From Escherichia coli (GTDB lineage: Bacteria; Pseudomonadota; Gammaproteobacteria; Enterobacterales; Enterobacteriaceae), in the NCBI RefSeq assembly GCF_024298765.1, contig NZ_CP101210.1: 64,000 bases of DNA; one strand, written 5' to 3'. Made by a program: the position numbers and the translations under genes. Below the pieces are notes generated by a model that saw only the letters and a list, made by a program, of their open reading frames with translations, made no database searches and had not been told where the DNA came from. This document shows positions 7,411-60,819 of the stretch, piece after piece; the stretch's first letter is position 1; each line of letters starts with the position of its first letter.

Positions 7411-7524
7411 TGCGAGCAGCATTCCGGCATTTAAAGGTGAACATCGCAGGGAGAATTAACAGGTATAGAATGGAGTTGGGTGCTTGAGGCTGTCTGGCGT
7501 TAAGCATTCGCGAGGTTCCAGATG

Positions 7525-7582
7525 GACAAAAGCCCCAGGCGATATTTCTATCAACCTGAGGCCAGCGTTCGAACCTAAGCAA
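7525..7582 (-). ncRNA. Sok-like antisense RNA of a hok/sok-type locus (predicted)
   Basis: On the minus strand: candidate -35 TTGCCT (plus 7611-7616) and -10 TAACAT (plus 7588-7593) with 17-bp spacing, then a ~57-nt transcript ending in hairpin GCCUCAGG...CCUGGGGC plus CUUUUGU. Size matches the Sok antisense RNA family; boundaries inferred. Confidence 0.4.
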
Positions 7583-7619
7583 TTCGAATGTTAGTCTCTT
7601 CTTTGCAGGGAGGCAAGAC

Positions 7620-7772
7620 ATGCTGACAAAATATGCCCTTGTGGCAATCATCGTACTGTGTTGTACAGTACTGGGATTCACGCTGATGGTAGGCGACTCG
7701 TTGTGTGAGTTGAGTATCAGAGAACGTGGTATGGAGTTTAAGGCAGTTCTCGCTTACGAATCGAAGAAGTAG
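7620..7772 (+). CDS. Hok/Gef family small membrane toxin (type I toxin)
   Basis: 50-aa ORF below the track length cutoff, read by hand: [50 protein letters not shown]. Hydrophobic N-terminal helix plus the conserved DSLCEL...AYES pattern of Hok family toxins; RBS GGGAGG upstream. Confidence 0.7.
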
Positions 7773-7798: not shown

Positions 7799-8009
7799 TA
7801 CTGAATTGTGATGGTTTGGTCTCCTGCACCCTTTTTTAATTTATATTGTTTATGTGAATATTATGCCTATGTTTATTATTTATATATATTATGGATGAAA
7901 ATCATTTAATTATTCACAATGTAAATATTTTATTGAAAGATATATGTCACAGATAATTTTTAATATATGCGTGAATATCCTTTAAGTTTTACTGAAGGAT
8001 AAAAATATT

Positions 8010-10667
8010 GTGACTTTCTTTTATTTCTGGGGAAAAACCCGACGCGGCGAGAAAGACGGGGGCGAAGACTATCACCTTCTTTGCTGGCATTCGCTGGATG
8101 TAGCCGCGATGGGCTATTTAATGGTTAAAAGCAATTGCTTCGGACTGGCTGGCTATTTTCGTCAATTAGGTTTCGCTGACACGGAGCTGGCAGCACAATT
8201 TTTCGCCTGGCTGCTGTGCTGGCACGATATTGGAAAATTTGCCCGCTCTTTTCAGCAACTTTACCTGCACCCACAACTCAAGGTTCCGGAAGGCGCAAGA
8301 AAGAATTACGAAAAGATCTCTCATTCAACGCTGGGCTACTGGTTGTGGAACCATTATTTAAGTGAATGTCAGGAGTTGCTTCCTTCATCTTCACTCTCTC
8401 CGCGCAAACTTAAACGGGTGATGGAGATGTGGATGCCCATGACTACCGGGCATCATGGTCGACCCCCTGAGCGTATGGATGAACTGGATAATTTTCTGCC
8501 TGAAGACAAAGGTGCCGCACGAGATTTTCTCCTTGCAATCAAGGTACTGTTTCCGCTCATAGAGATCCCCACATTCTGGGATGATGACGAGGGCGTTGAA
8601 CTTATAAAACAACTTTCCTGGTATATCTCTGCAACCGTCGTACTTGCAGACTGGACGGGATCGTCAACGCGATATTTTCCACGCGTTGCACAGGCAATGG
8701 ATATTGAAGATTACTGGCAGAAAACTTTAGTTCAGGCTCAAAACGCCTTAACCGTCTTTCCTCCAAAAGCAGAAAGCGCGCCTTTCACCGGAATTAATAC
8801 GCTGTTTCCTTTTATTGAGAATCCGACACCGCTACAGCAAAAGGTGCTGGATCTGGATATCAGCCAGCCGGGACCACAGTTATTTATTCTGGAGGATGTA
8901 ACCGGCGCAGGTAAAACAGAAGCGGCGCTTATCCTGGCGCACAGGTTGATGGCTGCGGGGAAAGCGCAGGGTTTGTTTTTTGGCCTGCCAACAATGGCAA
9001 CGGCCAATGCCATGTACGATCGACTGGTCAAAACCTGGCTTGCTTTCTATTCGCCAGAGTCCCGCCCCAGCCTGGTGCTGGCACACAGTGCCCGAACATT
9101 AATGGACCGCTTTAATGAATCACTCTGGTCCGGTGATTTAGTCGGGTCAGAAGAACCGGATGAACAAACGTTCAGTCAGGGATGTGCGGCCTGGTTTGCC
9201 GACAGTAACAAGAAGGCGCTACTGGCTGAAATTGGCGTCGGCACGCTGGATCAGGCGATGATGGCTGTGATGCCGTTCAAACATAATAATCTGCGGCTTC
9301 TGGGACTGAGTAACAAAATCCTGCTGGCTGATGAGATCCATGCCTGTGACGCTTACATGTCATGCATTCTTGAAGGGCTGATCGAGCGGCAGGCGCGTGG
9401 CGGAAACAGCGTCATTTTGCTTTCTGCCACGTTATCTCAACAGCAGCGCGACAAACTCGTCGCCGCCTTTGCGCGTGGTATAGAGGGCCAGCAAGAAGCT
9501 CCGTTGCTGGAAAAGGATGATTACCCCTGGCTGACGCACGTTACGAAATCCGATGTGCATTCACACCGGGTAGCGACGCGCAAAGACGTTGAGCGCAGCG
9601 TGAGTGTGGGTTGGCTTCATAGCGAACAAGAGTGTATTGCGCGTATCGAATCGGCGGTAAGTCAGGGGAAATGTATCGCCTGGATCCGAAATTCTGTCGA
9701 TGACGCCATCCAGGTTCATCGTCAGTTACTTGCCCGCGGCGTCATTCCTGCTTCCAGCCTTTCACTTTTTCATAGCCGCTTTGCTTTTAGCGATCGCCAG
9801 CGAATTGAAACGGAGACGCTGGCACGCTTTGGTAAAGAAGACTGTTCACAGCGTGCCGGAAAAGTCCTCATTTGTACTCAAGTCCTGGAGCAGAGCGTTG
9901 ACTGCGACCTGGACGAAATGATTTCCGACCTTGCCCCTGTTGATTTACTGATCCAGCGGGCGGGGCGATTACAGCGGCATATCCGCGATATTAATGGTCT
10001 GTTAAAGCGTGACGGAAAAGACGAGCGTTCCCCTCCTGAATTTCTGATTCTGGCTCCCGTCTGGGACGACTCTCCGGGTGACGAATGGTTTGGCAGCGCC
10101 ATGCGTAACAGTGCATATGTCTACCCCGATCATGGGCGAATCTGGCTGACGCAGCGTGTGCTGCGTGAGCAAGGCGCTATTCAGATGCCACACGCAGCCC
10201 GGCTTCTTATTGAATCAGTCTACGGTGAAGACGTGGCAATGCCGGAAGGATTTGCCCGCAGTGAGCAGGAGCAAGTGGGCAAATATTACTGCGATCGCGC
10301 AATGGCTAAAAAGTTTGTCCTGAACTTCAAGCCTGGCTATGCCGCCAATATCAACGATTACCTTCCGGAAAAGCTGTCGACACGTCTGGCTGAGGAATCT
10401 GTTTCCCTGTGGCTGGCTACCTGTATTGACGGTGTGGTGAAGCCTTATGCCACCGGTGCTCACGCATGGGAAATGAGCGTTGTCAGAGTGCGTCGAAGCT
10501 GGTGGAAAAAACATCGGGATGAGTTTTCTTTACTGGAAGGGGATGCGTTCAGGCAGTGGTGCATTGAACAGCGGCAAGATCCGGAGATGGCAAACGTGAT
10601 TTTAGTCACCGATGACGAAAGTTGCGGGTATTCGGCTATGGAAGGATTGACTGGCAAGGTTGGTTGA
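8010..10667 (+). CDS. cas3: CRISPR-associated helicase/nuclease Cas3 (type I-E)
   Basis: 885-aa ORF starting at GTG 8010 (AAGGA 10 nt upstream); HD-nuclease-like N-terminus (H..LDVAA, HDIGK) and DEAD/DEAH helicase motifs (GAGKTEAA, DEIH); first gene of the cas operon. Confidence 0.9.
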   Translation: MTFFYFWGKTRRGEKDGGEDYHLLCWHSLDVAAMGYLMVKSNCFGLAGYFRQLGFADTELAAQFFAWLLCWHDIGKFARSFQQLYLHPQLKVPEGARKNYEKISHSTLGYWLWNHYLSECQELLPSSSLSPRKLKRVMEMWMPMTTGHHGRPPERMDELDNFLPEDKGAARDFLLAIKVLFPLIEIPTFWDDDEGVELIKQLSWYISATVVLADWTGSSTRYFPRVAQAMDIEDYWQKTLVQAQNALTVFPPKAESAPFTGINTLFPFIENPTPLQQKVLDLDISQPGPQLFILEDVTGAGKTEAALILAHRLMAAGKAQGLFFGLPTMATANAMYDRLVKTWLAFYSPESRPSLVLAHSARTLMDRFNESLWSGDLVGSEEPDEQTFSQGCAAWFADSNKKALLAEIGVGTLDQAMMAVMPFKHNNLRLLGLSNKILLADEIHACDAYMSCILEGLIERQARGGNSVILLSATLSQQQRDKLVAAFARGIEGQQEAPLLEKDDYPWLTHVTKSDVHSHRVATRKDVERSVSVGWLHSEQECIARIESAVSQGKCIAWIRNSVDDAIQVHRQLLARGVIPASSLSLFHSRFAFSDRQRIETETLARFGKEDCSQRAGKVLICTQVLEQSVDCDLDEMISDLAPVDLLIQRAGRLQRHIRDINGLLKRDGKDERSPPEFLILAPVWDDSPGDEWFGSAMRNSAYVYPDHGRIWLTQRVLREQGAIQMPHAARLLIESVYGEDVAMPEGFARSEQEQVGKYYCDRAMAKKFVLNFKPGYAANINDYLPEKLSTRLAEESVSLWLATCIDGVVKPYATGAHAWEMSVVRVRRSWWKKHRDEFSLLEGDAFRQWCIEQRQDPEMANVILVTDDESCGYSAMEGLTGKVG

Positions 10668-10764
10668 GATGCCTGCGACAGGGCTCTCTGAATAGTTGAT
10701 ACACAGAAAAAGATGGAAGGATGGACAACCGGCCAGGGATGGTCTTTTTTACGAGAGGATGCGT

Positions 10765-12327
10765 ATGAACTCGTTTTCACTTCTGACAACCCCGTGGTTG
10801 CCCGTTCGTTTTAAAGACGGAACAACAGGCAAACTGGCGCCAGTCCATCTGGCGGATGAAAATGTTGTCGATATAGCTGCGCCGCGGGCAGATCTCCAGG
10901 GGGCGGCATGGCAGTTTTTGCTGGGGCTACTACAAACCAGCTTCGCGCCAAAAGATCATCGTCGTTGGGATGATATCTGGGAAGACGGACTGGAAGCTGA
11001 AAAGCTACGGGAGGCATTGCTGCCATTAGAGCACGCTTTCCAGTTTGGGCCAGATTCCCCTTCATTTATGCAGGATTTTGAGGCGCTCACGGGAGATAAA
11101 GTTCCGGTCGCTTCGCTACTGCCTGAGATTCCCGGCGTTCAAACAACAAAGTTTAATAAAGACCACTTTATCAAGCGTGGTGTAACGGAACACCTGTGCC
11201 CACAGTGTTCTGCACTAGCCTTGTTCTCTCTACAGTTAAATGCGCCGTCAGGCGGCAAAGGCTATCGCACCGGCTTACGCGGCGGTGGGCCGATGACTAC
11301 TCTGATTGAATTACAGGAATATCAGGGCAATCAACAAACTCCCTTGTGGCGCAAAATGTGGCTCAACGTGATGCCGCAGGATGAAGCCGACTTACCGCTA
11401 CCCAAAAAATTTGACGGTCTGGTTTTCCCCTGGCTTGGCCCGACGCGCACCAGCGAACTGGCCGGTGCGGTGGTAACCGATGATCAGGTTAATAAACTCC
11501 AGGCGTACTGGGGAATGCCGCGGCGTATTCGTATTGATTTTAATACCACGACAGTCGGCAACTGCGATATTTGCGGCGAGCAGAACGACGCGCTCCTGAG
11601 CCTGATGACGACCAAAAATTACGGTGCGAATTATGCCATGTGGCAGCATCCTTTAACGCCTTACCGTATACCACTTAAAGAGGGTGGCGAGTTTTACTCG
11701 GTCAAACCACAACCGGGCGGTTTAATCTGGCGCGACTGGTTAGGCCTTATCGAAACGGGTAAGTCAGAAAACAATACGGAACTTCCTGCACTGGTGGTGA
11801 AACTCTTTAATGCCAGCAGTCTGAAACAGGCAAAAGTGGGCCTATGGGGATTTGGTTATGATTTTGACAACATGAAAGCGCGCTGTTGGTACGAACACCA
11901 TTTCCCGCTACTGCTCAATAAAAAAGAAGGCCAGATACCGAAGCTGCGGCTGGCTGCGCAAACGGCTTCACGGATTCTGAGTCTGTTACGGAGTGCATTG
12001 AAAGAAGCATGGTTCTCCGATCCAAAAGGTGTAAGGGGTGATTTCAGTTTTGTGGATATCGACTTCTGGAACAAAACTCAGCATCGCTTCCTGAGGTTAG
12101 TGCGCCAAATTGAAGAAGGTCAGGATGCGGATGAATTACTCGGCAAATGGCAAAAGGAAATTTGGTTATTCGCGCGTCAGGATTTTGACGAGCGTGTATT
12201 CACTAATCCTTATGAGCCCGTTGATTTGAAACGCGTCATGACCGCGCGCAAGAAATATTTTACAACATCGGCGGAGAAGCAAAGTGCTAAAGCCGCCAGG
12301 GAGAAAAAGCAGGAGGCTGCTGAATGA
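10765..12327 (+). CDS. casA: Cascade large subunit Cse1/CasA (Cas8e)
   Basis: Track ORF 10696..12327; likely start ATG 10765 (MNSFSLLTTPWLPV) preceded by GAGAGG; position and size match the Cascade large subunit. Confidence 0.8.
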   Translation: MNSFSLLTTPWLPVRFKDGTTGKLAPVHLADENVVDIAAPRADLQGAAWQFLLGLLQTSFAPKDHRRWDDIWEDGLEAEKLREALLPLEHAFQFGPDSPSFMQDFEALTGDKVPVASLLPEIPGVQTTKFNKDHFIKRGVTEHLCPQCSALALFSLQLNAPSGGKGYRTGLRGGGPMTTLIELQEYQGNQQTPLWRKMWLNVMPQDEADLPLPKKFDGLVFPWLGPTRTSELAGAVVTDDQVNKLQAYWGMPRRIRIDFNTTTVGNCDICGEQNDALLSLMTTKNYGANYAMWQHPLTPYRIPLKEGGEFYSVKPQPGGLIWRDWLGLIETGKSENNTELPALVVKLFNASSLKQAKVGLWGFGYDFDNMKARCWYEHHFPLLLNKKEGQIPKLRLAAQTASRILSLLRSALKEAWFSDPKGVRGDFSFVDIDFWNKTQHRFLRLVRQIEEGQDADELLGKWQKEIWLFARQDFDERVFTNPYEPVDLKRVMTARKKYFTTSAEKQSAKAAREKKQEAAE

Positions 12328-12860
12328 GTATTGTAAAAGAGGAGCACAAAGCCACGCTGCGTAAATGGCACGAAGAGTTGCAGGAAAAACGCGGCAATCG
12401 TGCCAGTCTGCGGCGTAGCACAACGGTTAATGATGTTTGTCTGTCAGAAGGGTTTCGTTCTCTGCTGATGCAGACCCACACGTTGTGGAAAATTGAATCA
12501 CAGGAGTGGCGTTTTACCGCACTGGCGCTGGTTGCCGCCGTTGCCGCCAATGTAAAAGCCATTGATGAACGGCAGCCTTTTGCCGCGCAGTTGGCGGCGG
12601 TAATGTCTGAGGGGCGTTTTACTCGCCTGTCGGCAGTCAAAACGCCGGATGAATTACTGCGCCAGTTACGTCGCGCGGTCAAATTATTAAATGGTTCCGT
12701 CAATCTTATCTCTTTGGCAGACGATATTTTCCGCTGGTGCCAGGAGAGCGACGATCTGCTCAATCATCACCGCCGCCAGCAGCGGCCAACAGAATTTATC
12801 CGTATCCGCTGGGCGCTGGAATATTACCAGGCTGGCGACGCCGATAACGAACAAAATTAA
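12324..12860 (+). CDS. casB: Cascade small subunit Cse2/CasB (Cas11)
   Basis: 178-aa ORF; start overlaps the cse1 stop (ATGA); AGGAGG RBS; position in operon. Confidence 0.8.
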   Translation: MSIVKEEHKATLRKWHEELQEKRGNRASLRRSTTVNDVCLSEGFRSLLMQTHTLWKIESQEWRFTALALVAAVAANVKAIDERQPFAAQLAAVMSEGRFTRLSAVKTPDELLRQLRRAVKLLNGSVNLISLADDIFRWCQESDDLLNHHRRQQRPTEFIRIRWALEYYQAGDADNEQN

Positions 12861-12874
12861 TAAAGGACTATCTC

Positions 12875-13930
12875 ATGACGACATTTATTCAGCTTCATTT
12901 GTTAACCGCTTACCCTGCTGCCAACCTTAACCGTGATGACACCGGTGCGCCAAAAACTGTGGTACTGGGTGGAGCAACGCGTCTGCGCGTTTCCTCACAA
13001 AGTCTGAAACGTGCGTGGCGCACTTCTGCACTTTTTGAACAGGCACTGGCGGGCCATATTGGTATTCGCAGTGGGCGTATTGCGCGTGAGGCGGCAACTA
13101 TCCTGATTGAGAAAGGCATCGAAGAGAAAAAAGCCATCGAATGGGCGGCAAAAATTGCGGATTATCTTGGGAAAGCTAAAAACGACAAAAAACCAAAAGA
13201 TCCGCTCACTAACGCCGAAACTGAACAGCTAGTCCATATCAGCCCGGCAGAATTTGACGCCGTAAAAGCGCTGGCCCATCAACTGGCCGAAGAAAAGCGC
13301 GCGCCAAAAGAGGAAGATCTCGCTTTGTTACGTAAAGATCGCATGGCGGTAGATATCGCTATGTTTGGTCGTATGCTGGCGAATAAACCCGAATTTAATG
13401 TTGAAGCCGCCTGCCAGGTCGCGCATGCATTTGGTGTCAGTGAAACGATTGTCGAAGATGATTTTTTCACCGCCGTTGATGATTTGCGCCAGGCTTCTGA
13501 AGATGCCGGTGCCGGGCATCTTGGTGAAACCGGATTCGGTTCTGCGCTGTTCTACACCTATATCTGCATCGATAAAGATCTGCTGGTCGAAAACCTCGGC
13601 GGTGACGAAGCGTTAGCTAATCAGACCTTGCGCGCCTTTACGGAAGCCGCACTTAAAGTCTCCCCAACCGGCAAACAGAACAGCTTTGCCAGCCGTGCCT
13701 ACGCCTCCTGGGCGCTGGCAGAAAAAGGCACTGAACAACCACGCTCTCTGGCGGCGGCTTTCTATGAACCCATTAATGGCACCCTCCAGTTAGATGTGGC
13801 GGTGCAGCGTATTACAACGCTTCGCGAAAATATGAATACGGTCTATGAACAGAAGACCGAATGTGCAAGCTTTGACGTGATGAACAAACAGGGAAGCATG
13901 AAGGACGTGCTGGACTTTATCTGCGCGTAA
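12875..13930 (+). CDS. casC: Cascade backbone subunit Cas7e/CasC
   Basis: 351-aa ORF; N-terminus MTTFIQLHLLTAYPAANLNRDDTGAPKT recognised as the CasC family. Confidence 0.9.
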   Translation: MTTFIQLHLLTAYPAANLNRDDTGAPKTVVLGGATRLRVSSQSLKRAWRTSALFEQALAGHIGIRSGRIAREAATILIEKGIEEKKAIEWAAKIADYLGKAKNDKKPKDPLTNAETEQLVHISPAEFDAVKALAHQLAEEKRAPKEEDLALLRKDRMAVDIAMFGRMLANKPEFNVEAACQVAHAFGVSETIVEDDFFTAVDDLRQASEDAGAGHLGETGFGSALFYTYICIDKDLLVENLGGDEALANQTLRAFTEAALKVSPTGKQNSFASRAYASWALAEKGTEQPRSLAAAFYEPINGTLQLDVAVQRITTLRENMNTVYEQKTECASFDVMNKQGSMKDVLDFICA

Positions 13931-13940
13931 GGGGCGGCTA

Positions 13941-14687
13941 ATGAGCCAATATTTGATTTTTCAGCTTCATGGGCCAATGGCATCCTGGGGCGTCGATGCC
14001 CCTGGCGAAGTGCGTCATACCCATGAACTGCCTTCGCGCTCAGCATTGCTGGGGCTGCTGGCTGCCGGGGTAGGGATTCGGCGTGATGATACCGAACGAT
14101 TAAACGCGTTTAACCGCCACTATTCACTGGTGGTTTGCGCCAGCCGTAACCCGCGCTGGGCACGGGATTATCACACGGTCCAGATGCCAAAAGAGGTGCG
14201 TAAAGCGCGTTATTTCAGCCGTCGCGAAGAGTTGAGCGCCCCTGATCTTCTGAGCGCGATTATCTCCCGGCGCGACTACTACACCGATGCCTGGTGGATG
14301 GTGGCGGTGGCAACAACCCCCGATGCGCCTTACAGCCTTGAACAGTTGCAGGACGGTTTACGTCATCCGGTTTTTCCGCTTTATCTGGGGCGAAAAAGTC
14401 ATCCGCTGGCGTTACCACTTGCGCCGTTACTGCTCGAAGGCAACGCGTCTGATGTCTTACGTAACGCATACCAACAGTATCAGGATAGTTTCCGCGAACT
14501 GAAAGTCTCACTCCCGAAACTTCAGGATGAATGCTGGTGGGAAGGGGAACACGACGGCCTGGTCGCGAGCAAAATATTACGTCGCCGGGATGTTCCTTTA
14601 AATCGTCAGCAGTGGCTGTTTGGGGAACGCACCATCAATCAGGGGCCGTGGCTCAGCAAGGAGGAACCATGTACCTCTCAAGAATAA
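13941..14687 (+). CDS. casD: Cascade subunit Cas5e/CasD
   Basis: 248-aa ORF; N-terminus MSQYLIFQLHGPMASWG recognised as the Cas5e family. Confidence 0.85.
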   Translation: MSQYLIFQLHGPMASWGVDAPGEVRHTHELPSRSALLGLLAAGVGIRRDDTERLNAFNRHYSLVVCASRNPRWARDYHTVQMPKEVRKARYFSRREELSAPDLLSAIISRRDYYTDAWWMVAVATTPDAPYSLEQLQDGLRHPVFPLYLGRKSHPLALPLAPLLLEGNASDVLRNAYQQYQDSFRELKVSLPKLQDECWWEGEHDGLVASKILRRRDVPLNRQQWLFGERTINQGPWLSKEEPCTSQE

Positions 14688-15315
14688 CCTTACATACCGG
14701 CCAGCTTTCCCCAGCGCAGTTGCTGCATCTGGTGGATCGCGGTGAATATGTAATGCATCAGTGGCTGTGGGATCTTTTTCCTGGCGGCAAAGAAAGGCAA
14801 TTTCTTTATCGTCGGGAAGAACTCCAGGGGGCGTTTCGCTTTTTTGTCCTGTCGCAGGAACGCCCGGCGGAAAGTGATATTTTCACCATCGAATGCCGAC
14901 CATTTGCGCCAGAGTTGCGTACCGGACAATCCCTTTGTTTCAACCTGCGGGCGAATCCAACAATTTGTAAAGCGGGCAAACGCCACGACTTGCTGATGGA
15001 GGCGAAACGGCAGGTGAGGGGGCAGGTGGAAGGAAGTGATGTCTGGTTGCATCAACAACAGGCTGCGCTGGACTGGCTGGCAGCGCAGGGGGAGAGAAGC
15101 GGTTTTACACTGCTGGATACTTCGGTTGATGCCTACCGACAACAGCAACTGCGGCGGGAAAACTCCCGGCAACTGATCCAGTTCAGTAGCGTGGATTATA
15201 CGGGGATGCTTACGGTCACCGATCCTGGGTTATTTCTGCAACGTCTCAGTCAGGGGTATGGCAAAAGCCGGGCGTTCGGTTGTGGTCTGATGCTGATCAA
15301 ACCCGGAGCAGAGGC

Positions 15316-15319
<4 letters not shown>
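14669..15319 (+). CDS. casE: CRISPR RNA endoribonuclease Cas6e/CasE
   Basis: Track ORF 14531..15319; likely start ATG 14669 (MYLSRITL) with AAGGAGG RBS; glycine-rich C-terminal GCGLM loop typical of Cas6e. Confidence 0.85.
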
Positions 15320-16529
<1,210 letters not shown>

Positions 16530-16625
16530 GTTATCCGTTCTTTAAAAATAAGGAAATGTTTTAATTTAGTTGGTAGATTGTTGATGCGGAATAAATTTGT
16601 TTAAAAACAGTTATGTATGCTTAGT
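16530..16625 (+). promoter_or_regulatory. CRISPR leader (AT-rich, array promoter and integration site)
   Basis: About 96-bp AT-rich segment between the cas2 stop and the first repeat. Confidence 0.6.
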
Positions 16626-17935
16626 GTGTTCCCCGCGCCAGCGGGGATAAACCGCATTGAAAACATTGCCTTTATTTTATTTTTTGGTGTTCCCCGCGCC
16701 AGCGGGGATAAACCGGTGCCGCCGCTGGGCACTTCCTTCCCGTGAGTGTGTTCCCCGCGCCAGCGGGGATAAACCGCCCTGATAGCGTCCAGTTGAATGC
16801 GCGCCCGCGTGTTCCCCGCGCCAGCGGGGATAAACCGGCAGGCACGGGCAATATCAGACTCGGTCAAAGGTGTTCCCCGCGCCAGCGGGGATAAACCGCT
16901 CGGTTGTTTTCATATTACCGGCCTGCCACTGTGTTCCCCGCGCCAGCGGGGATAAACCGACAATATCCCGGACCGGGCGCTGATTTAGTCAGTGTTCCCC
17001 GCGCCAGCGGGGATAAACCGCGGACGGTGGGAATATAGAAAATCCGTCCACCGTGTTCCCCGCGCCAGCGGGGATAAACCGTTATACTCTTTTCATCGAC
17101 TAAGGAGGGGAGGGTGTTCCCCGCGCCAGCGGGGATAAACCGCAATAACGCAGCATCCAGGAAGCTGTTTCCGCGTGTTCCCCGCGCCAGCGGGGATAAA
17201 CCGCGATCGGTGAAGAGGTCCGCGAAATACTCACTGTGTTCCCCGCGCCAGCGGGGATAAACCGGCGATAGTTGATTCAGCCGCGCCAGCGAATGTGTGT
17301 TCCCCGCGCCAGCGGGGATAAACCGGGGCCGCCGCGAATTTACACACGATTCAATACGTGTTCCCCGCGCCAGCGGGGATAAACCGAACTGGTGCGCGAC
17401 GGCTGGCTAACAAAACGAGTGTTCCCCGCGCCAGCGGGGATAAACCGCGTGGCTGCGCTGGCCGTTGCAGCAGTTTGATGTGTTCCCCGCGCCAGCGGGG
17501 ATAAACCGCGTAAACGCCCCGTCGCCATTAATTTCGGGGTGTGTTCCCCGCGCCAGCGGGGATAAACCGTGGGATGAGCAAATAACGTCGTTTCCTAGAA
17601 AGTGTTCCCCGCGCCAGCGGGGATAAACCGCCGCCGTGCCAGTGATCCTCATACGGCCTGTTGTGTTCCCCGCGCCAGCGGGGATAAACCGAAATTAAGA
17701 ACGGCGTAAACGACGGCAGCATGGTGTTCCCCGCGCCAGCGGGGATAAACCGGTGATGATTCAGAGCAGACATTAGCCCGCGCTGTGTTCCCCGCGCCAG
17801 CGGGGATAAACCGGGTAAAAACACGGTCTGAACCGACATTCATGTGTGTTCCCCGCGTCAGCGGGGATAAACCGGACGCACTGGATGCGATGATGGATAT
17901 CACTTAGAATTCCCCGCCCCTGCGGTAGAACTCCC
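16626..17935 (+). CRISPR. Type I-E CRISPR array: 21 repeats of GTGTTCCCCGCGCCAGCGGGGATAAACCG plus a degenerate terminal repeat, 21 spacers of 32 nt
   Basis: Repeats counted by hand at 16626, 16687, 16748 ... 17846 with an exact 61-bp period. Repeat 21 (17846-17874) carries one substitution (GCGTCAGCG); the terminal repeat 17907-17935 (GAATTCCCCGCCCCTGCGGTAGAACTCCC) matches about 18/29. Confidence 0.97.
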
Positions 17936-29092: not shown

Positions 29093-29125
29093 GCCTGGAT
29101 AAGACACGTCAGCGTCCCATCCGGC
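29093..29125. repeat. REP-like palindrome
   Basis: GCCTGGATAAGACACGTCAGCGTCCCATCCGGC, a REP-type imperfect palindrome between rpoS and hosA. Confidence 0.5.
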
Positions 29126-29135
29126 AATCAACATC

Positions 29136-29543
29136 CTATTTGCTCATCATCTTGCGCACCAGCTGCATAAACAGCTCCTGCTCTTCTCCACTCAAACGCC
29201 CCAAAAATTCCTCATCCACACTGTCACCTATCGGTATCGCCGCAGCAAGTATCTTTTCGCCTTCGGCAGTCAGCCAGACAAAGCGTCGCCGCTTGTCAGC
29301 GGCGTCATGTTCACGTCTGACTAAGCCACGATTTTCCATTCTTGCCAACATTTCTGCCAGCGTTGCTTTGGTGCTGACTGCTGCTTCTATCAGTGCCACC
29401 TGTTCGATACCAGGCTTATCAGCAATGGCGCGCATCACCGCGTACTGTGGTTTGGTCAGGTCAGGTAACTCGTGCTGCCAGCGAGCTGTATGCTGCTGAA
29501 AAAGCTGTCGTAACTGATGGAACGCTTTATTTCGTAACGCCAT
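29136..29543 (-). CDS. hosA: MarR/SlyA-family transcriptional regulator HosA
   Basis: Track ORF 29136..29576; likely 135-aa protein from MALRNKAFHQLRQLF; winged-helix MarR-like sequence; recognised as the SlyA homologue found next to rpoS in non-K-12 E. coli. Confidence 0.75.
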   Translation of the reverse strand: MALRNKAFHQLRQLFQQHTARWQHELPDLTKPQYAVMRAIADKPGIEQVALIEAAVSTKATLAEMLARMENRGLVRREHDAADKRRRFVWLTAEGEKILAAAIPIGDSVDEEFLGRLSGEEQELFMQLVRKMMSK

Positions 29544-29658
29544 GTAAACTCCGGGCAAACTATCTGCCGCTATCATAGCGGTTTTTCAGTGACGAAGAAG
29601 ATGTTGTTACTTTTCAGCGCTTGCCGCGATGAAAACAGAGGCGTATTTTAATAATAAC

Positions 29659-29672
29659 GTTCGTATACGAAC
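29659..29672. promoter_or_regulatory. Perfect 14-bp palindrome GTTCGTATACGAAC upstream of ecdB (candidate MarR-type operator)
   Basis: Perfect dyad read from the sequence, 17 bp upstream of the ecdB start, in the hosA/ecdB divergent region. Confidence 0.45.
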
Positions 29673-29689
29673 AATTTAGAGAGTAAGCA

Positions 29690-30283
29690 ATGAAACTGAT
29701 CGTCGGGATGACAGGGGCTACCGGTGCGCCTCTTGGTGTGGCATTACTGCAAGCGCTGCGGGAGATGCCGAATGTCGAGACTCATCTGGTGATGTCGACG
29801 TGGGCGAAAACCACCATTGAACTGGAAACGCCTTACAGCGCCCGCGATGTTGCTGCCCTCGCAGACTTCAGCCATAACCCGGCGGATCAGGCGGCGACCA
29901 TCTCCTCAGGTTCCTTTCGTACCGACGGCATGATCGTTATTCCGTGCAGTATGAAAACGCTCGCCGGTATCCGTGCCGGTTACGCCGATGGCCTGGTGGG
30001 GCGCGCGGCGGACGTCGTGCTCAAAGAAGGCCGCAAACTAGTGCTGGTGCCGCGTGAAATGCCGCTTAGCACCATCCATCTCGAAAATATGCTCGCACTT
30101 TCACGCATGGGCGTGGCGATGGTGCCGCCGATGCCTGCCTTTTATAACCATCCCGAAACGGTAGATGACATTGTCCACCACGTGGTAGCCCGCGTGCTGG
30201 ATCAATTTGGCCTCGAACATCCCCACGCCAGGCGCTGGCAAGGATTGCCGCAGGTCCGGAATTTTTCTCAGGAGAATGAATAA
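29690..30283 (+). CDS. ecdB: UbiX-family flavin prenyltransferase (Pad1-like; partner of a UbiD-type decarboxylase)
   Basis: 197-aa ORF MKLIVGMTGATGAPLG... typical UbiX/Pad1 fold; symbol from memory of E. coli O157-type annotation (also called pad1/kpdB). Confidence 0.8.
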   Translation: MKLIVGMTGATGAPLGVALLQALREMPNVETHLVMSTWAKTTIELETPYSARDVAALADFSHNPADQAATISSGSFRTDGMIVIPCSMKTLAGIRAGYADGLVGRAADVVLKEGRKLVLVPREMPLSTIHLENMLALSRMGVAMVPPMPAFYNHPETVDDIVHHVVARVLDQFGLEHPHARRWQGLPQVRNFSQENE

Positions 30284-31710
30284 TGGCATTTGATGATTTA
30301 CGCAGCTTTTTACAGGCGCTTGATGACCACGGCCAGTTACTGAAAATCAGCGAAGAGGTGAACGCGGAACCGGATCTGGCAGCCGCAGCCAACGCCACCG
30401 GGCGTATCGGCGACGGCGCGCCCGCGCTTTGGTTTGATAATATTCGCGGCTTTATCGATGCCCGCGTGGCAATGAACACCATCGGTTCCTGGCAGAACCA
30501 CGCGATTTCCCTCGGCCTGCCGCCAAACACCCCGGTTAAAAAACAGATTGATGAGTTTATCCGCCGCTGGGATAACTTCCCCATTGCCCCGGAGCGCCGC
30601 GCCAATCCAGCCTGGGCGCAGAACACCGTCGATGGCGACGAGATCAACCTGTTCGATATTCTGCCACTGTTTCGTTTAAACGACGGTGATGGCGGTTTCT
30701 ATCTCGACAAAGCGTGCGTGGTTTCCCGCGATCCGCTTGATCCGGATAACTTCGGCAAGCAGAACGTCGGCATCTACCGTATGGAAGTGAAGGGTAAGCG
30801 TAAGCTCGGTCTGCAACCGGTGCCGATGCACGATATCGCCCTGCATCTGCATAAAGCGGAAGAGCGCGGTGAAGATCTGCCGATTGCAATCACGCTCGGT
30901 AACGATCCGATCATCACCCTGATGGGGGCCACGCCGCTGAAATACGATCAGTCTGAGTATGAAATGGCAGGCGCGCTGCGCGAAAGCCCGTACCCGATCG
31001 CCACCGCCCCGCTGACCGGTTTTGATGTGCCGTGGGGCTCGGAAGTGATCCTCGAAGGGGTCATCGAAAGCCGTAAACGCGAAATCGAAGGGCCGTTCGG
31101 TGAGTTTACCGGGCACTACTCCGGCGGGCGTAATATGACCGTCGTGCGCATTGATAAAGTCTCTTATCGCAGCAAACCCATTTTTGAATCGCTCTATCTC
31201 GGGATGCCGTGGACGGAAATCGACTACCTGATGGGGCCAGCCACCTGCGTGCCGCTGTATCAGCAACTGAAAGCCGAGTTCCCGGAAGTGCAGGCGGTGA
31301 ACGCCATGTACACCCACGGCCTTCTGGCGATTATCTCCACCAAAAAACGCTACGGCGGCTTTGCCCGCGCGGTGGGCCTGCGTGCGATGACCACGCCGCA
31401 CGGTCTGGGCTACGTGAAGATGGTGATTATGGTCGATGAAGACGTTGATCCGTTCAACCTGCCGCAGGTGATGTGGGCGCTCTCCTCGAAAGTGAACCCG
31501 GCAGGGGATTTGGTGCAGTTGCCGAATATGTCCGTGCTGGAACTCGACCCCGGCTCAAGCCCGGCCGGTATCACCGACAAGCTGATTATCGACGCCACCA
31601 CGCCTGTCGCTCCGGACAACCGTGGTCACTACAGCCAGCCGGTGGTGGATTTACCGGAAACCAAAGCCTGGGCTGAAAAACTGACCGCTATGCTGGCCGC
31701 ACGTCAATAA
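30283..31710 (+). CDS. ecdC: UbiD-family (prenyl-FMN dependent) aromatic acid decarboxylase, catalytic subunit
   Basis: 475-aa ORF, start overlapping the ecdB stop; recognised as the UbiD family (yclC-like). Confidence 0.8.
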   Translation: MAFDDLRSFLQALDDHGQLLKISEEVNAEPDLAAAANATGRIGDGAPALWFDNIRGFIDARVAMNTIGSWQNHAISLGLPPNTPVKKQIDEFIRRWDNFPIAPERRANPAWAQNTVDGDEINLFDILPLFRLNDGDGGFYLDKACVVSRDPLDPDNFGKQNVGIYRMEVKGKRKLGLQPVPMHDIALHLHKAEERGEDLPIAITLGNDPIITLMGATPLKYDQSEYEMAGALRESPYPIATAPLTGFDVPWGSEVILEGVIESRKREIEGPFGEFTGHYSGGRNMTVVRIDKVSYRSKPIFESLYLGMPWTEIDYLMGPATCVPLYQQLKAEFPEVQAVNAMYTHGLLAIISTKKRYGGFARAVGLRAMTTPHGLGYVKMVIMVDEDVDPFNLPQVMWALSSKVNPAGDLVQLPNMSVLELDPGSSPAGITDKLIIDATTPVAPDNRGHYSQPVVDLPETKAWAEKLTAMLAARQ

Positions 31711-31720
31711 GGAGAACAAG

Positions 31721-31957
31721 ATGATTTGTCCACGTTGTGCCGATGAACAGATTGAAGTGATGGCGAAATCGCCGGTAAAAGATGTCTGGATGGTCTACCA
31801 GTGCCAGCATTGCCTCTATACCTGGCGCGATACCGAACCGCTACGCCGCACCAGCCGCGAACATTATCCCGAAGCGTTCCGCATGACGCAGAAAGATATT
31901 GATGACGCGCCGATGGTGCCGAGCATCCCGCCGCTGCTGGCGGAAGGTAAGCGCTAA
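31721..31957 (+). CDS. ecdD: small subunit of the phenolic acid decarboxylase (YclD-like, Cys-rich)
   Basis: 78-aa ORF with CxxC...CxxC spacing, directly downstream of the UbiD-like gene. Confidence 0.65.
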   Translation: MICPRCADEQIEVMAKSPVKDVWMVYQCQHCLYTWRDTEPLRRTSREHYPEAFRMTQKDIDDAPMVPSIPPLLAEGKR

Positions 31958-31958
31958 A

Positions 31959-31990
31959 TAAAAGGTCCGATGCCCATCGGACCTTTTATT
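31959..31990. terminator. Bidirectional Rho-independent terminator between convergent ecdD and ygbN
   Basis: Stem AAAGGTCCGATG / CATCGGACCTTT flanked by an A-run on one side and a T-run on the other. Confidence 0.65.
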
Positions 31991-31994
31991 AAGG

Positions 31995-33359
31995 TCAAAT
32001 TACCGCCCATACGCACCAGGTAATTAAGAATCCGGTAAAACCGAGAATGGTCGTTAACACTGTCCAGGTTTTCAGACCGTCTGCTACCGACAACCCCAGA
32101 TATTTGGTCACAATCCAGAACCCTGAGTCATTAATATGTGACGCACCAAGCCCACCAAAGCAGGCTGCCAGCGTCACCAATACGCACTGAATCGGATTCA
32201 ATCCCATCACCGCTTCTGAGAGTAACCCGCCGGTTGTCAGGATTGCTACGGTTGCTGATCCCTGCGATGCACGCAGCGCCAGTGAAATAATAAATGCGGC
32301 TGGTAACAGAGGCAGGTCAATCATTTGTAGCATGTTGGCAAGGGCTTTGCCGACGCCCGATTCCACCAGCACTTTGCCAAATACCCCTCCAGCACCAGTA
32401 ACCAAAATCACTACCGCCGCAGTGGGAAGGGCTGAGCCCATAATGTCGCTGGTGTGTTGTAAGCTCCAGCCGCGACGTAAAGCCAATAACCAGAATGCCA
32501 GCACCAGCGCAATCATTAGAGCTACCATTGGTGAGCCGATCAGCTGTAGCGTACCAAGCAGGGGATGCGAAGGCGGCATCAGTGTTGCGGAAACCGTACC
32601 CGCCATGATAATCGCGATAGGAATAACAATTAGCGAGGTGACCAGCGCGACGCCCGGTGGATTTATTTTATCGCTTAATTTTGTCGCGCCTTCCTCACTG
32701 GCCGGAGCCAGTTGCATCTGTTCCAGTACCTCGACCGACATCGCATATTGGCGCTTATTGATTATTTTCGCTGCAAAGTAGCCAACAATCCCTACGGGAA
32801 TAGAAATCGCAATACCGATGATGGTTAGCCAGCCGATGTCTGCGTGGAGTAACCCCGCTGCGGCGACAGGGCCTGGATGCGGCGGTACCGCCACGTGAAC
32901 AGTGAGCATGATCCCAGCGACAGGCAGGCCAAATTTGAGTGGTGATATTTTGGCAACCTTGGCAAAACCGTAAATGATTGGCGCAAGAATAATAAAGCCG
33001 ACATCAAAGAAGACGGGAATACCGAGGAAGAACGCTGCCAGAGTCAGCGCAGCGATAGTTCGTTTGTCGCCTAACTTGCGACTGAAATAATTAGCCAGTG
33101 ACTCTGCACCACCAGAGTGTTCGATCATACGCCCCAGCATAGCGCCCAGACCAATAATAATAGTGACGGAACCAAGCACACCGCCCATCCCGGCGATCAT
33201 CACTTTACCCACTTCGCCCGCCGGTATACCCGCCGCAAGTGCGACTAACAGGCTGACGAGGAGCAGAGCAACGAATGGTTGTACCTTTGCCTTGATGACC
33301 AGCAGCAACAGCATGATTACGCCAGCTAACGCAATGCATAACAATGTAATTGTGGACAT
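31995..33359 (-). CDS. ygbN: GntP-family permease YgbN
   Basis: 454-aa polytopic membrane ORF recognised as YgbN. Confidence 0.85.
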   Translation of the reverse strand: MSTITLLCIALAGVIMLLLLVIKAKVQPFVALLLVSLLVALAAGIPAGEVGKVMIAGMGGVLGSVTIIIGLGAMLGRMIEHSGGAESLANYFSRKLGDKRTIAALTLAAFFLGIPVFFDVGFIILAPIIYGFAKVAKISPLKFGLPVAGIMLTVHVAVPPHPGPVAAAGLLHADIGWLTIIGIAISIPVGIVGYFAAKIINKRQYAMSVEVLEQMQLAPASEEGATKLSDKINPPGVALVTSLIVIPIAIIMAGTVSATLMPPSHPLLGTLQLIGSPMVALMIALVLAFWLLALRRGWSLQHTSDIMGSALPTAAVVILVTGAGGVFGKVLVESGVGKALANMLQMIDLPLLPAAFIISLALRASQGSATVAILTTGGLLSEAVMGLNPIQCVLVTLAACFGGLGASHINDSGFWIVTKYLGLSVADGLKTWTVLTTILGFTGFLITWCVWAVI

Positions 33360-56510: not shown

Positions 56511-59401
<2,891 letters not shown>

Positions 59402-59486
59402 CGGATTTTATCCTGTTATCAGTAGGGTAGATGTAGTAGTTATCAGTCGACGTGACGGAAAAATGCCGATGCTGAAACGGAATTAA

Positions 59487-59498
59487 GAAACCGGTTTC
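59487..59498. promoter_or_regulatory. Candidate AscG operator 1 (perfect palindrome GAAACCGGTTTC)
   Basis: 12-bp perfect dyad in the ascF/ascG divergent region, GalR/LacI-type operator shape. Confidence 0.5.
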
Positions 59499-59560
59499 AC
59501 AAAATCATGAATAGTTGTCACTAAATAAGCAAGAGAGTTAATTGTTCATTTTTTATATTT

Positions 59561-59574
59561 GTGAAACCGGTCAC
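59561..59574. promoter_or_regulatory. Candidate AscG operator 2 (GTGAAACCGGTCAC)
   Basis: Imperfect dyad related to the first site, 74 bp downstream. Confidence 0.45.
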
Positions 59575-59660
59575 CTGAATATTTTTCCCGCCGATTGCGC
59601 AAGGACAATCGGCAAACGGTGCAGTACACTGCGTTGATTACGTGTAAAGGGATGAAAATG

Positions 59661-60671
59661 ATGACGACGATGCTGGAAGTGGCGAAGCGCGCCGGGGTTT
59701 CAAAAGCGACCGTTTCCCGCGTGCTTTCAGGTAATGGCTACGTCAGCCAGGAGACTAAAGATCGCGTGTTTCAGGCGGTAGAAGAGAGCGGTTACCGTCC
59801 AAACTTGCTGGCGCGCAATCTGTCGGCGAAGAGTACTCAGACGCTGGGGCTGGTCGTGACCAACACGCTTTACCATGGCATTTATTTTAGTGAATTACTG
59901 TTTCATGCCGCGCGAATGGCGGAAGAGAAAGGGCGACAGTTGCTATTGGCAGATGGTAAACATAGCGCCGAAGAAGAGCGCCAGGCGATTCAGTATCTGC
60001 TGGATTTGCGCTGCGACGCCATCATGATTTACCCGCGCTTTTTAAGCGTGGATGAGATTGATGACATCATTGACGCACACAGTCAGCCGATAATGGTGCT
60101 TAATCGCCGCCTGCGCAAAAACAGCAGCCATAGCGTCTGGTGCGATCATAAACAGACCAGCTTTAACGCCGTGGCAGAGTTGATAACCGCCGGACATCAG
60201 GAGATTGCTTTCCTTACCGGCTCGATGGATTCCCCCACCAGCATTGAACGTCTTGCCGGATATAAAGACGCGCTGGCGCAGCATGGTATTGCGTTCAATG
60301 AAAAACTTATCGCTAACGGTAAATGGACGCCTGCCTGCGGGGCCGAAGGGGTAGAAACGTTGCTCGAACGTGGGGCTAAATTTAGCGCGTTAGTTGCCAG
60401 TAACGACGATATGGCGATAGGTGCGATGAAAGCGTTGCACGAGCGCGGCGTAGCGGTGCCAGAGCAGGTGTCAGTTATCGGATTCGATGATATCGCTATT
60501 GCCCCCTACACCGTTCCGGCGCTCTCCAGCGTAAAAATTCCGGTGACTGAGATGATTCAGGAAATAATTGGGCGGCTGATATTTATGCTCGATGGTGGTG
60601 CTTACACACCGCCGAAAACCTTCAGCGGAAAACTGATCCGCCGCGACTCCCTCATTGCTCTTTCGCGATAA
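59661..60671 (+). CDS. ascG: LacI/GalR-family repressor AscG
   Basis: Track ORF 59595..60671; likely start at MTTMLEVAKRAGVSKATVSRV (336 aa); ATG codons at 59652/59658/59661 make the exact start uncertain. Confidence 0.85.
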   Translation: MTTMLEVAKRAGVSKATVSRVLSGNGYVSQETKDRVFQAVEESGYRPNLLARNLSAKSTQTLGLVVTNTLYHGIYFSELLFHAARMAEEKGRQLLLADGKHSAEEERQAIQYLLDLRCDAIMIYPRFLSVDEIDDIIDAHSQPIMVLNRRLRKNSSHSVWCDHKQTSFNAVAELITAGHQEIAFLTGSMDSPTSIERLAGYKDALAQHGIAFNEKLIANGKWTPACGAEGVETLLERGAKFSALVASNDDMAIGAMKALHERGVAVPEQVSVIGFDDIAIAPYTVPALSSVKIPVTEMIQEIIGRLIFMLDGGAYTPPKTFSGKLIRRDSLIALSR

Positions 60672-60684
60672 ACATTGTCATCAC

Positions 60685-60719
60685 ATGTCATCGTCACTAG
60701 TGTCGATGACATCGTTTTT
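60685..60719 (+). other. 9-bp perfect inverted repeat ATGTCATCG...CGATGACAT followed by T-run (putative ascG terminator and/or regulatory site for hydN)
   Basis: Inverted repeat with 10-nt spacer and downstream TTTTT read from the sequence; function inferred. Confidence 0.35.
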
Positions 60720-60819
60720 CCTGCATTACAGAATTTAATTTCTTTAAATAACAGTAAATTAAAAACTGGCATGATTTGTGAATGTATCGGCGCATTAACT
60801 GTCATTGCTGGAGAATTTG

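Follow-up and report, generated by a model that had tools for sequence, protein, structure and literature searches.

An Escherichia coli ascF-ascG control region with an intact ascG repressor gene, one AscG palindrome and a putative composite CRP/AscG site

The regulatory region between ascG and ascFB of E. coli K-12 was reportedly described by Hall & Xu 1992 and by Ishida, Kori & Ishihama 2009. The asc locus, its repressor, its operator and the role of CRP are already known, in K-12 for decades. According to the classical literature, asc of K-12 stays silent on arbutin, salicin and cellobiose until ascG has been inactivated. Activation by insertion of IS186 into ascG has been reported, and no inducer of the operon is known (PMC3505978). 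The AscG site of PascF is given as TGAAACCGGTTTCT in Table S3 of Guharajan et al. 2021, where AscG placed on a synthetic promoter repressed strongly when bound at +1 and almost not at all when bound at -61 (PMC8667592).

The window, i.e. the whole stretch of 64,000 nucleotides that was analysed, belongs to the chromosome of E. coli and is collinear with strain 104 (NZ_CP029164) at 99.9% identity. At the asc locus the genes follow the order hycI, ascB and ascF (both on the minus strand), ascG (plus strand), hydN and hypF, which is the K-12 arrangement on the opposite strand. The genes and the region between them are:

56511-57935, minus strand: ascB, 6-phospho-beta-glucosidase of 474 aa, intact (ORF, Pfam and comparison with K-12 b2716)
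57944-59401, minus strand: ascF, PTS IIBC transporter for beta-glucosides, 485 aa, intact (ORF, Pfam and comparison with K-12)
59402-59660, no strand: ascF-ascG divergent control region, 259 bp, exactly between the ascF and ascG start codons
59661-60671, plus strand: ascG, LacI/GalR-family repressor of 336 aa, intact (uninterrupted 336-codon ORF, Pfam and comparison with K-12)

The ascB product matched Glyco_hydro_1 of Pfam (E=8e-134), and the corresponding gene of the near-identical strain 104 is annotated as ascB; the ascF product matched PTS_EIIB and PTS_EIIC. Both proteins have the length of their K-12 counterparts, with 10 amino acid substitutions relative to b2716 in AscB and 6 relative to b2715 in AscF, and the synonymous divergence of the asc genes from K-12 is fairly high (dS 0.08-0.15). 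The control region is also of equal length in K-12 and differs from it by 4 substitutions, none of which falls in either of the two dyads discussed below. The preliminary description of this DNA had taken ascG to be full length and undisrupted, and both statements stand: the 336-codon ORF has the length of K-12 b2714 with 8 amino acid differences, and alignment to the K-12 gene revealed no frameshift. Over 8.4 kb, only 2 bases distinguish strain 104 from the window, both within asc genes; at 57979 (ascF codon 475) Gln of the window corresponds to a stop in strain 104, and at 60336 (ascG codon 226) Cys of the window corresponds to Ser.

The N-terminus of AscG carries the LacI helix-turn-helix of Pfam (PF00356, residues 3-48, E=1.8e-21, above cut-off), and its C-terminus matched PF13377 and PF00532 (residues 60-330, above their cut-offs), a periplasmic-binding-protein-like effector domain. 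The top matches in the PDB were two closely related entries, 3DBI, entered simply as a LacI-family regulator, and 3BRQ, entered as HTH-type transcriptional regulator ascG (E=2e-187), with CcpA, PurR and LacI as more relatives. These two domains, together with a palindrome of ~14 bp with a central CG adjoining the regulated genes, place the protein among the LacI/GalR repressors. In a search of NCBIfam no AscG-specific model reached its cut-off and the best-scoring models, GalR and GalS, remained far below theirs; the name AscG therefore rests on identity and synteny, namely near-identity to b2714, divergent orientation to ascFB and the flanking genes hycI and hydN-hypF.

A scan of one genome per species retrieved 80 loci with an AscG orthologue of 66-98% identity, 81 with the window, from Escherichia, Citrobacter, Enterobacter, Klebsiella, Raoultella, Kluyvera, Leclercia and Lelliottia and, further, from Phytobacter, Pseudocitrobacter, Aeromonas, Sodalis and others. 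Every one of these 80 has ascF and ascB divergent from ascG. Values of dN/dS for ascG, ascF and ascB lie between 0.04 and 0.11, within E. coli as well as between genera, and on these values the three genes are under strong purifying selection. Full-length ascG was found in 4699 of 5426 complete E. coli genomes and the 259-bp control region in 4698 of them; where the locus exists, full-length ascG is nearly universal and disruptions are rare. Two rare natural disruptions of the control region were encountered, an IS1 in the ascF leader of E. coli 04A19CPO007, between operator and ascF start (~59449 in the window), and an IS621 at the 5' end of ascG in strain WL164.

The neighbouring hydN is present in 5425 of the 5426 complete genomes, which leaves ~13% of E. 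coli without asc. In strain 21221 the gap between hycI and hydN holds a gene with an HTH domain and two small ORFs in place of asc; the HTH protein is the same as the one encoded beside higB in RIVM_C019217, where the higB-HTH pair occurs together with asc. On the other side of ascG, the ascG-hydN spacer (60672-60804 in the window) carries in K-12 a sigma-54 (RpoN) promoter for hydN-hypF (PMC8743547).

Elsewhere in the window, 7478-7635 matched the sok antitoxin RNA of Rfam (111.7 bits), and the corresponding region of strain 104 has an annotated Hok/Gef toxin gene immediately downstream of cysH. The segment at ~8000-17600 corresponds to the type I-E CRISPR-Cas genes of strain 104, among which the annotation marks cas3 as frameshifted and casA as interrupted by a stop, and is the part of the window least similar to that strain (98.85% identity, 45 gap openings). 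In the rpoS-mutS variable region (~29100-32000), where window and strain 104 are 99.9% identical, strain 104 has genes for a MarR-family regulator and for hydroxyarylic acid decarboxylase B, C and D.

Returning to the asc control region, the elements recognised or predicted in it are the following:

59486-59499, no strand: primary AscG operator (dyad A), AGAAACCGGTTTCA, reverse complement of the published PascF site
59504-59509, minus strand: predicted -10 of PascF, CATGAT, placed by conservation
59527-59532, minus strand: predicted -35 of PascF, TTGCTT (conserved CAAG block at 59530-59533 and conserved 17-bp spacing)
59560-59575, no strand: CRP box TGTGA-AACCGG-TCACC, TGTGAAACCGGTCACC, centre 59567.5 (arm match and conservation)
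59562-59575, no strand: AscG-like 14-mer TGAAACCGGTCACC, overlapping the CRP box
59602-59630, plus strand: predicted ascG promoter, -35 AGGACA (59602-59607), 17 bp, -10 TACACT (59625-59630), placed by conserved blocks

A perfect 12-bp palindrome had been claimed for the divergent region. Such a palindrome, GAAACCGGTTTC, indeed lies at 59487-59498, identical to K-12 and in its sole exact copy within the 64 kb, and it turned out to be the published AscG site: the enclosing 14-mer at 59486-59499 (AGAAACC-GGTTTCA, with a central CG), between ascF and ascG, is the exact reverse complement of the site listed in Table S3. The operator core AACCGGTT is found in 81 of 81 orthologous loci from Escherichia to Aeromonas (window counted), and the flanks of the dyad are largely unalignable across the same loci. 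Moreover, the 12-mer is invariant in 11 aligned intergenic regions of E. coli and Escherichia, and the sole common polymorphism near it, A/G at 59486, concerns the outermost base of the 14-mer. It is because of this identity to the published site, its location between the divergent asc genes and its invariant core that dyad A is significant. By sequence, dyad A is the AscG operator already published for PascF, and since neither the site nor the DNA-binding domain differs from K-12, AscG of this strain would be expected to bind it. Near-matches to the operator at 13526 (1 mismatch, within the CRISPR-Cas gene cluster) and at 57775 in ascB were treated as chance. Just downstream of the operator in the direction of ascF, a motif resembling an AscG half-site, TGAAAC, is found at 59473-59478; many genera have this motif in the equivalent position, where Citrobacter, Kluyvera and Aeromonas read ATGAAAC.

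The predicted PascF has weak hexamers, with 4/6 and 3/6 matches to consensus, and a pattern TTGnnn-17 bp-[CG]ATGAT recurs in ~70 of the 81 loci. A consensus promoter and terminator scan of 59300-59760 found nothing; the weakness of both hexamers accounts for that silence and is the reason why CRP would be needed. Transcription of ascF is predicted to start near 59497 (59496-59497), inside dyad A, which puts the centre of the CRP box at -71.5 or -70.5. A box of the form GTGA-N6-TCNC is present in 79 of the 81 loci, its distance to the centre of dyad A being 74-75 bp, or 65 bp in 4 loci, one helical turn shorter; in loci with this ~10-bp shorter spacing the CRP centre falls at -61.5 or -60.5 from the predicted start. 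Class I CRP sites occupy positions near -61.5 or -71.5, and from the predicted start PascF would have a class I geometry.

On the other strand, ascG is predicted to be transcribed from a start near 59637, its promoter being marked by the conserved blocks GACAA (59604-59608) and GGTGCAGTACACTGCG (59618-59633) in an alignment of 31 loci from many genera. The latter block, 16 nt long and almost invariant across the alignment, Aeromonas included, holds the predicted -10 TACACT together with a near-palindrome, GCAGT-AC-ACTGC. It is conserved beyond what a -10 element needs and may be a candidate site for another regulator; no meaningful second copy of it was found elsewhere in the window. In addition, an 8-bp inverted repeat, GCCGATTG...CAATCGGC with an 8-nt spacer (59590-59613), overlaps the predicted -35 of ascG, and it is not conserved outside Escherichia. 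A hairpin was also considered in the ascF leader, where the Shine-Dalgarno sequence and the AUG (59399-59413) pair with 59457-59471 in the minimum-energy fold; it was rejected as a regulatory element, the fold being no stabler than shuffled sequences (z = -0.09) and the upstream arm unconserved.

Taken together, the sequence identities, the intactness of the genes and the conservation across loci, along with the published repression from the first site, make it very probable that this is a wild-type asc control region with AscG on the palindrome, a CRP-dependent PascF and a composite second site. In this model, an AscG dimer would bind the perfect palindrome at 59487-59498, which would cover the transcription start of the weak sigma-70 promoter of ascFB, and bound AscG would thereby block RNA polymerase directly. 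PascF would depend on cAMP-CRP at the box centred on 59567.5, at ~-70.5 and in a class I position. In Escherichia, where the inner six bases of this box have turned into AACCGG, they would provide a second, weaker site at which AscG competes with CRP and excludes it. A conserved promoter of its own would drive ascG in the opposite direction. Because ascG is undamaged and neither site departs from its K-12 form, tight repression of ascFB is to be expected on the classical beta-glucosides, in line with K-12.

The preliminary description had gone further and called the operon likely cryptic or repressed, and here the two words have to be separated. By analogy with K-12, repression of asc under standard conditions is well supported, and on arbutin, salicin and cellobiose it should hold because both sites and the DNA-binding domain are those of K-12. 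The term cryptic is doubtful, as the literature is divided. In fact, Desai et al. 2015 reported growth on cellobionic acid of MG1655, BL21(DE3), XL-1 Blue and AL17, and in AL17, whose asc was sequenced and found unmutated, this growth needs ascB (PMC4403981). Growth of unmutated strains that depends on ascB implies that repression is not absolute. Furthermore, the low dN/dS values suggest that the asc genes are used and argue against a permanently silent relic; further arguments are the control elements kept across genera, an ascG that is full length in all 4699 complete E. coli genomes carrying it, and an ascB promoter reported within ascF (PMC4488073). Hence the repressed part of the claim agrees with the sites and with the DNA-binding domain of AscG, and the cryptic part is not established, with growth on cellobionic acid and purifying selection arguing against it.

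These data lead to the likeliest alternative, namely that asc is an ordinary inducible operon with a natural inducer outside the trio of arbutin, salicin and cellobiose, one candidate being cellobionic acid or some phosphorylated form of it; the intact AscG and its operators would then form a working switch and not a permanent lock. Besides the cellobionic acid growth of the four strains, with its requirement for ascB in AL17, and the selection on ascG, ascF and ascB, this reading is favoured by the conservation of the divergent arrangement, the operator, the CRP box and the promoters in 80 other species, and by the near-universal presence of full-length ascG wherever the locus exists. Yet no effector of AscG has been identified (PMC3505978), and the ascB promoter that Parisutham & Lee 2015 located inside ascF (PMC4488073) may express ascB with no release of AscG. 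The locus has also been lost from ~13% of complete E. coli genomes. On balance we consider ordinary inducibility to fall slightly short of an even chance.

A second dyad, related to the first, had also been claimed, and GTGAAACCGGTCAC is present at 59561-59574, identical to K-12; its resemblance to the operator, however, is confined to six interior bases, and it is primarily a CRP box. The arms of the box match the consensus TGTGA-N6-TCACA at 9 of 10 positions, with 1 mismatch, and the symmetry of the dyad comes from these arms (GTGA/TCAC). Read as an AscG site, the dyad agrees with the symmetric consensus at 11 of 14 positions, 7/7 in the left half and 4/7 in the right. Across the 81 loci, the interior 6-mer of the box takes 36 different forms; since the arms are conserved and the interior is not, the conserved feature at this place is the CRP box. 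The form AACCGG is found in the four Escherichia sequences and in no other of the 81 loci, and AACCGA in six loci, five of Kluyvera and one of an Enterobacteriaceae isolate. A degenerate consensus detected one AscG-like site in 70 of the 81 loci and two in 11. Judged from these comparisons, the second dyad is mainly a CRP box and would represent a composite CRP/AscG site rather than another palindromic operator like the first.

It could be argued that AscG has no part in the second dyad at all, the resemblance being incidental and AscG acting through the single palindrome. Conservation limited to the GTGA/TCAC arms, the prevalence of a single AscG-like site among the loci and the poor right half-site all point that way, as does the near absence of an AscG effect from -61 in the synthetic promoter (PMC8667592). 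Against it stand the complete left half-site and a 32-mer around the site that is identical in 4555 E. coli genomes. The abstract of Ishida 2009 is said to place one of two AscG sites over a CRP box. Another article cites two AscG sites at ascFB (PMC3505978), even though the LacI-AscG chimera results in the same article are unlike what two sites would predict. A purely CRP-binding second dyad is held to be unlikely, and AscG would occupy the composite site.

How the composite site may have arisen can be proposed tentatively, and we regard the following as doubtful. The second AscG site would be a recent gain specific to Escherichia, with something close to it in Kluyvera, made when the interior of an ancestral, conserved CRP box changed to AACCGG; AscG would thereby shut off activation by CRP besides blocking the start site. 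If this is true, the gain of the second site could explain the behaviour of asc in E. coli that has been called cryptic, and where asc has a single operator, as in Citrobacter, Enterobacter, Klebsiella and Aeromonas, it might respond normally to an inducer. A lineage-specific AscG site over a conserved CRP box may exceed the accessible literature, as a modest refinement.

A further possibility is that AscG of this strain is weakened by its substitutions (L212F, S226C, DFS314-316AYT and others), leaving asc partly derepressed despite the intact ORF. The protein does differ from its K-12 counterpart at eight positions (328 of 336 residues identical), F212 is outside the five commonest residues at its position among 77 orthologues from outside Escherichia, and the allele is uncommon, only 70 records being at least 99% identical. 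Nonetheless, none of the 8 differences comes before residue 176 or touches the DNA-binding domain and hinge, and residues 1-60, which contain the helix-turn-helix and the hinge, equal those of K-12. Within these 60 residues 33 are invariant across 83 aligned sequences, and the recognition segment VSKATVSRVLSG is identical in the window, in K-12 and in eight displayed orthologues of other genera. The substitutions mostly affect positions that vary among the 77 orthologues, where several of the window residues are common: T233 occurs in 51 and is the commonest, T316 in 26, C226 in 20 and A314 in 13. In addition, 7 of the 8 substitutions are shared with the closest genome, strain 104, and dN/dS against K-12 is 0.11. 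A weakened AscG therefore appears very improbable. Finally, the view that the palindromes arose by chance in an AT-rich intergenic region deserves practically no credence. Perfect 12-bp palindromes do occur in the window at the chance rate (15 vs ~15.6 expected), for which reason rarity was rejected as evidence. But dyad A coincides exactly with the published site, all 81 loci keep its core unchanged amid diverged flanks, and it stands at a fixed distance from the CRP box, so that the conservation data already refute such a reading.

As regards significance, the locus shows the standard asc arrangement, as in ~87% of complete E. coli genomes, and matters little for discovery. The useful result is one of annotation, with one true AscG palindrome, one putative composite CRP/AscG site and two predicted promoters, to which the lineage-specific second AscG site would bring a small testable addition to knowledge. 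A caution is also in place: an intact repressor should not be equated with a cryptic operon, because selection and the published growth data suggest that the system is used.

Compared to the described systems, the closest is asc of K-12 itself, with which the window shares the genes, their order and lengths, the 259-bp region, both dyads and the DNA-binding domain of AscG, and from which it differs by the 4 intergenic SNPs outside the dyads and by 8, 6 and 10 amino acid substitutions in AscG, AscF and AscB, respectively. No functional distinction separates the two; this is the same region and not a variant. Next comes gal with GalR/GalS, which has in common with asc a dimeric LacI/GalR repressor, a palindromic operator of 14-16 bp with a central CG, two sites tens of bp apart and an interplay with a CRP site at a weak promoter. 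However, the operator sequence differs, the second gal operator lies inside galE and its looping needs HU, whereas in asc the second site sits on the CRP box, 76 bp upstream of the first; the chimera results contrast with a two-site expectation (PMC3505978) and so give no basis for assuming looping by AscG. A looser likeness is to CytR and CRP at deoP2/cdd, where a LacI-family repressor at or next to CRP sites cancels CRP activation; yet CytR binds between two CRP dimers and needs contact with CRP, while the proposal for asc is one of competition for overlapping DNA. The bgl operon, lastly, resembles asc in encoding a PTS IIBC transporter and a phospho-beta-glucosidase for aryl beta-glucosides, and insertion elements can switch on either operon, both being silent in laboratory strains, but bgl is silenced by H-NS and governed by the antiterminator BglG, whereas asc has a LacI-type repressor and no antiterminator gene.
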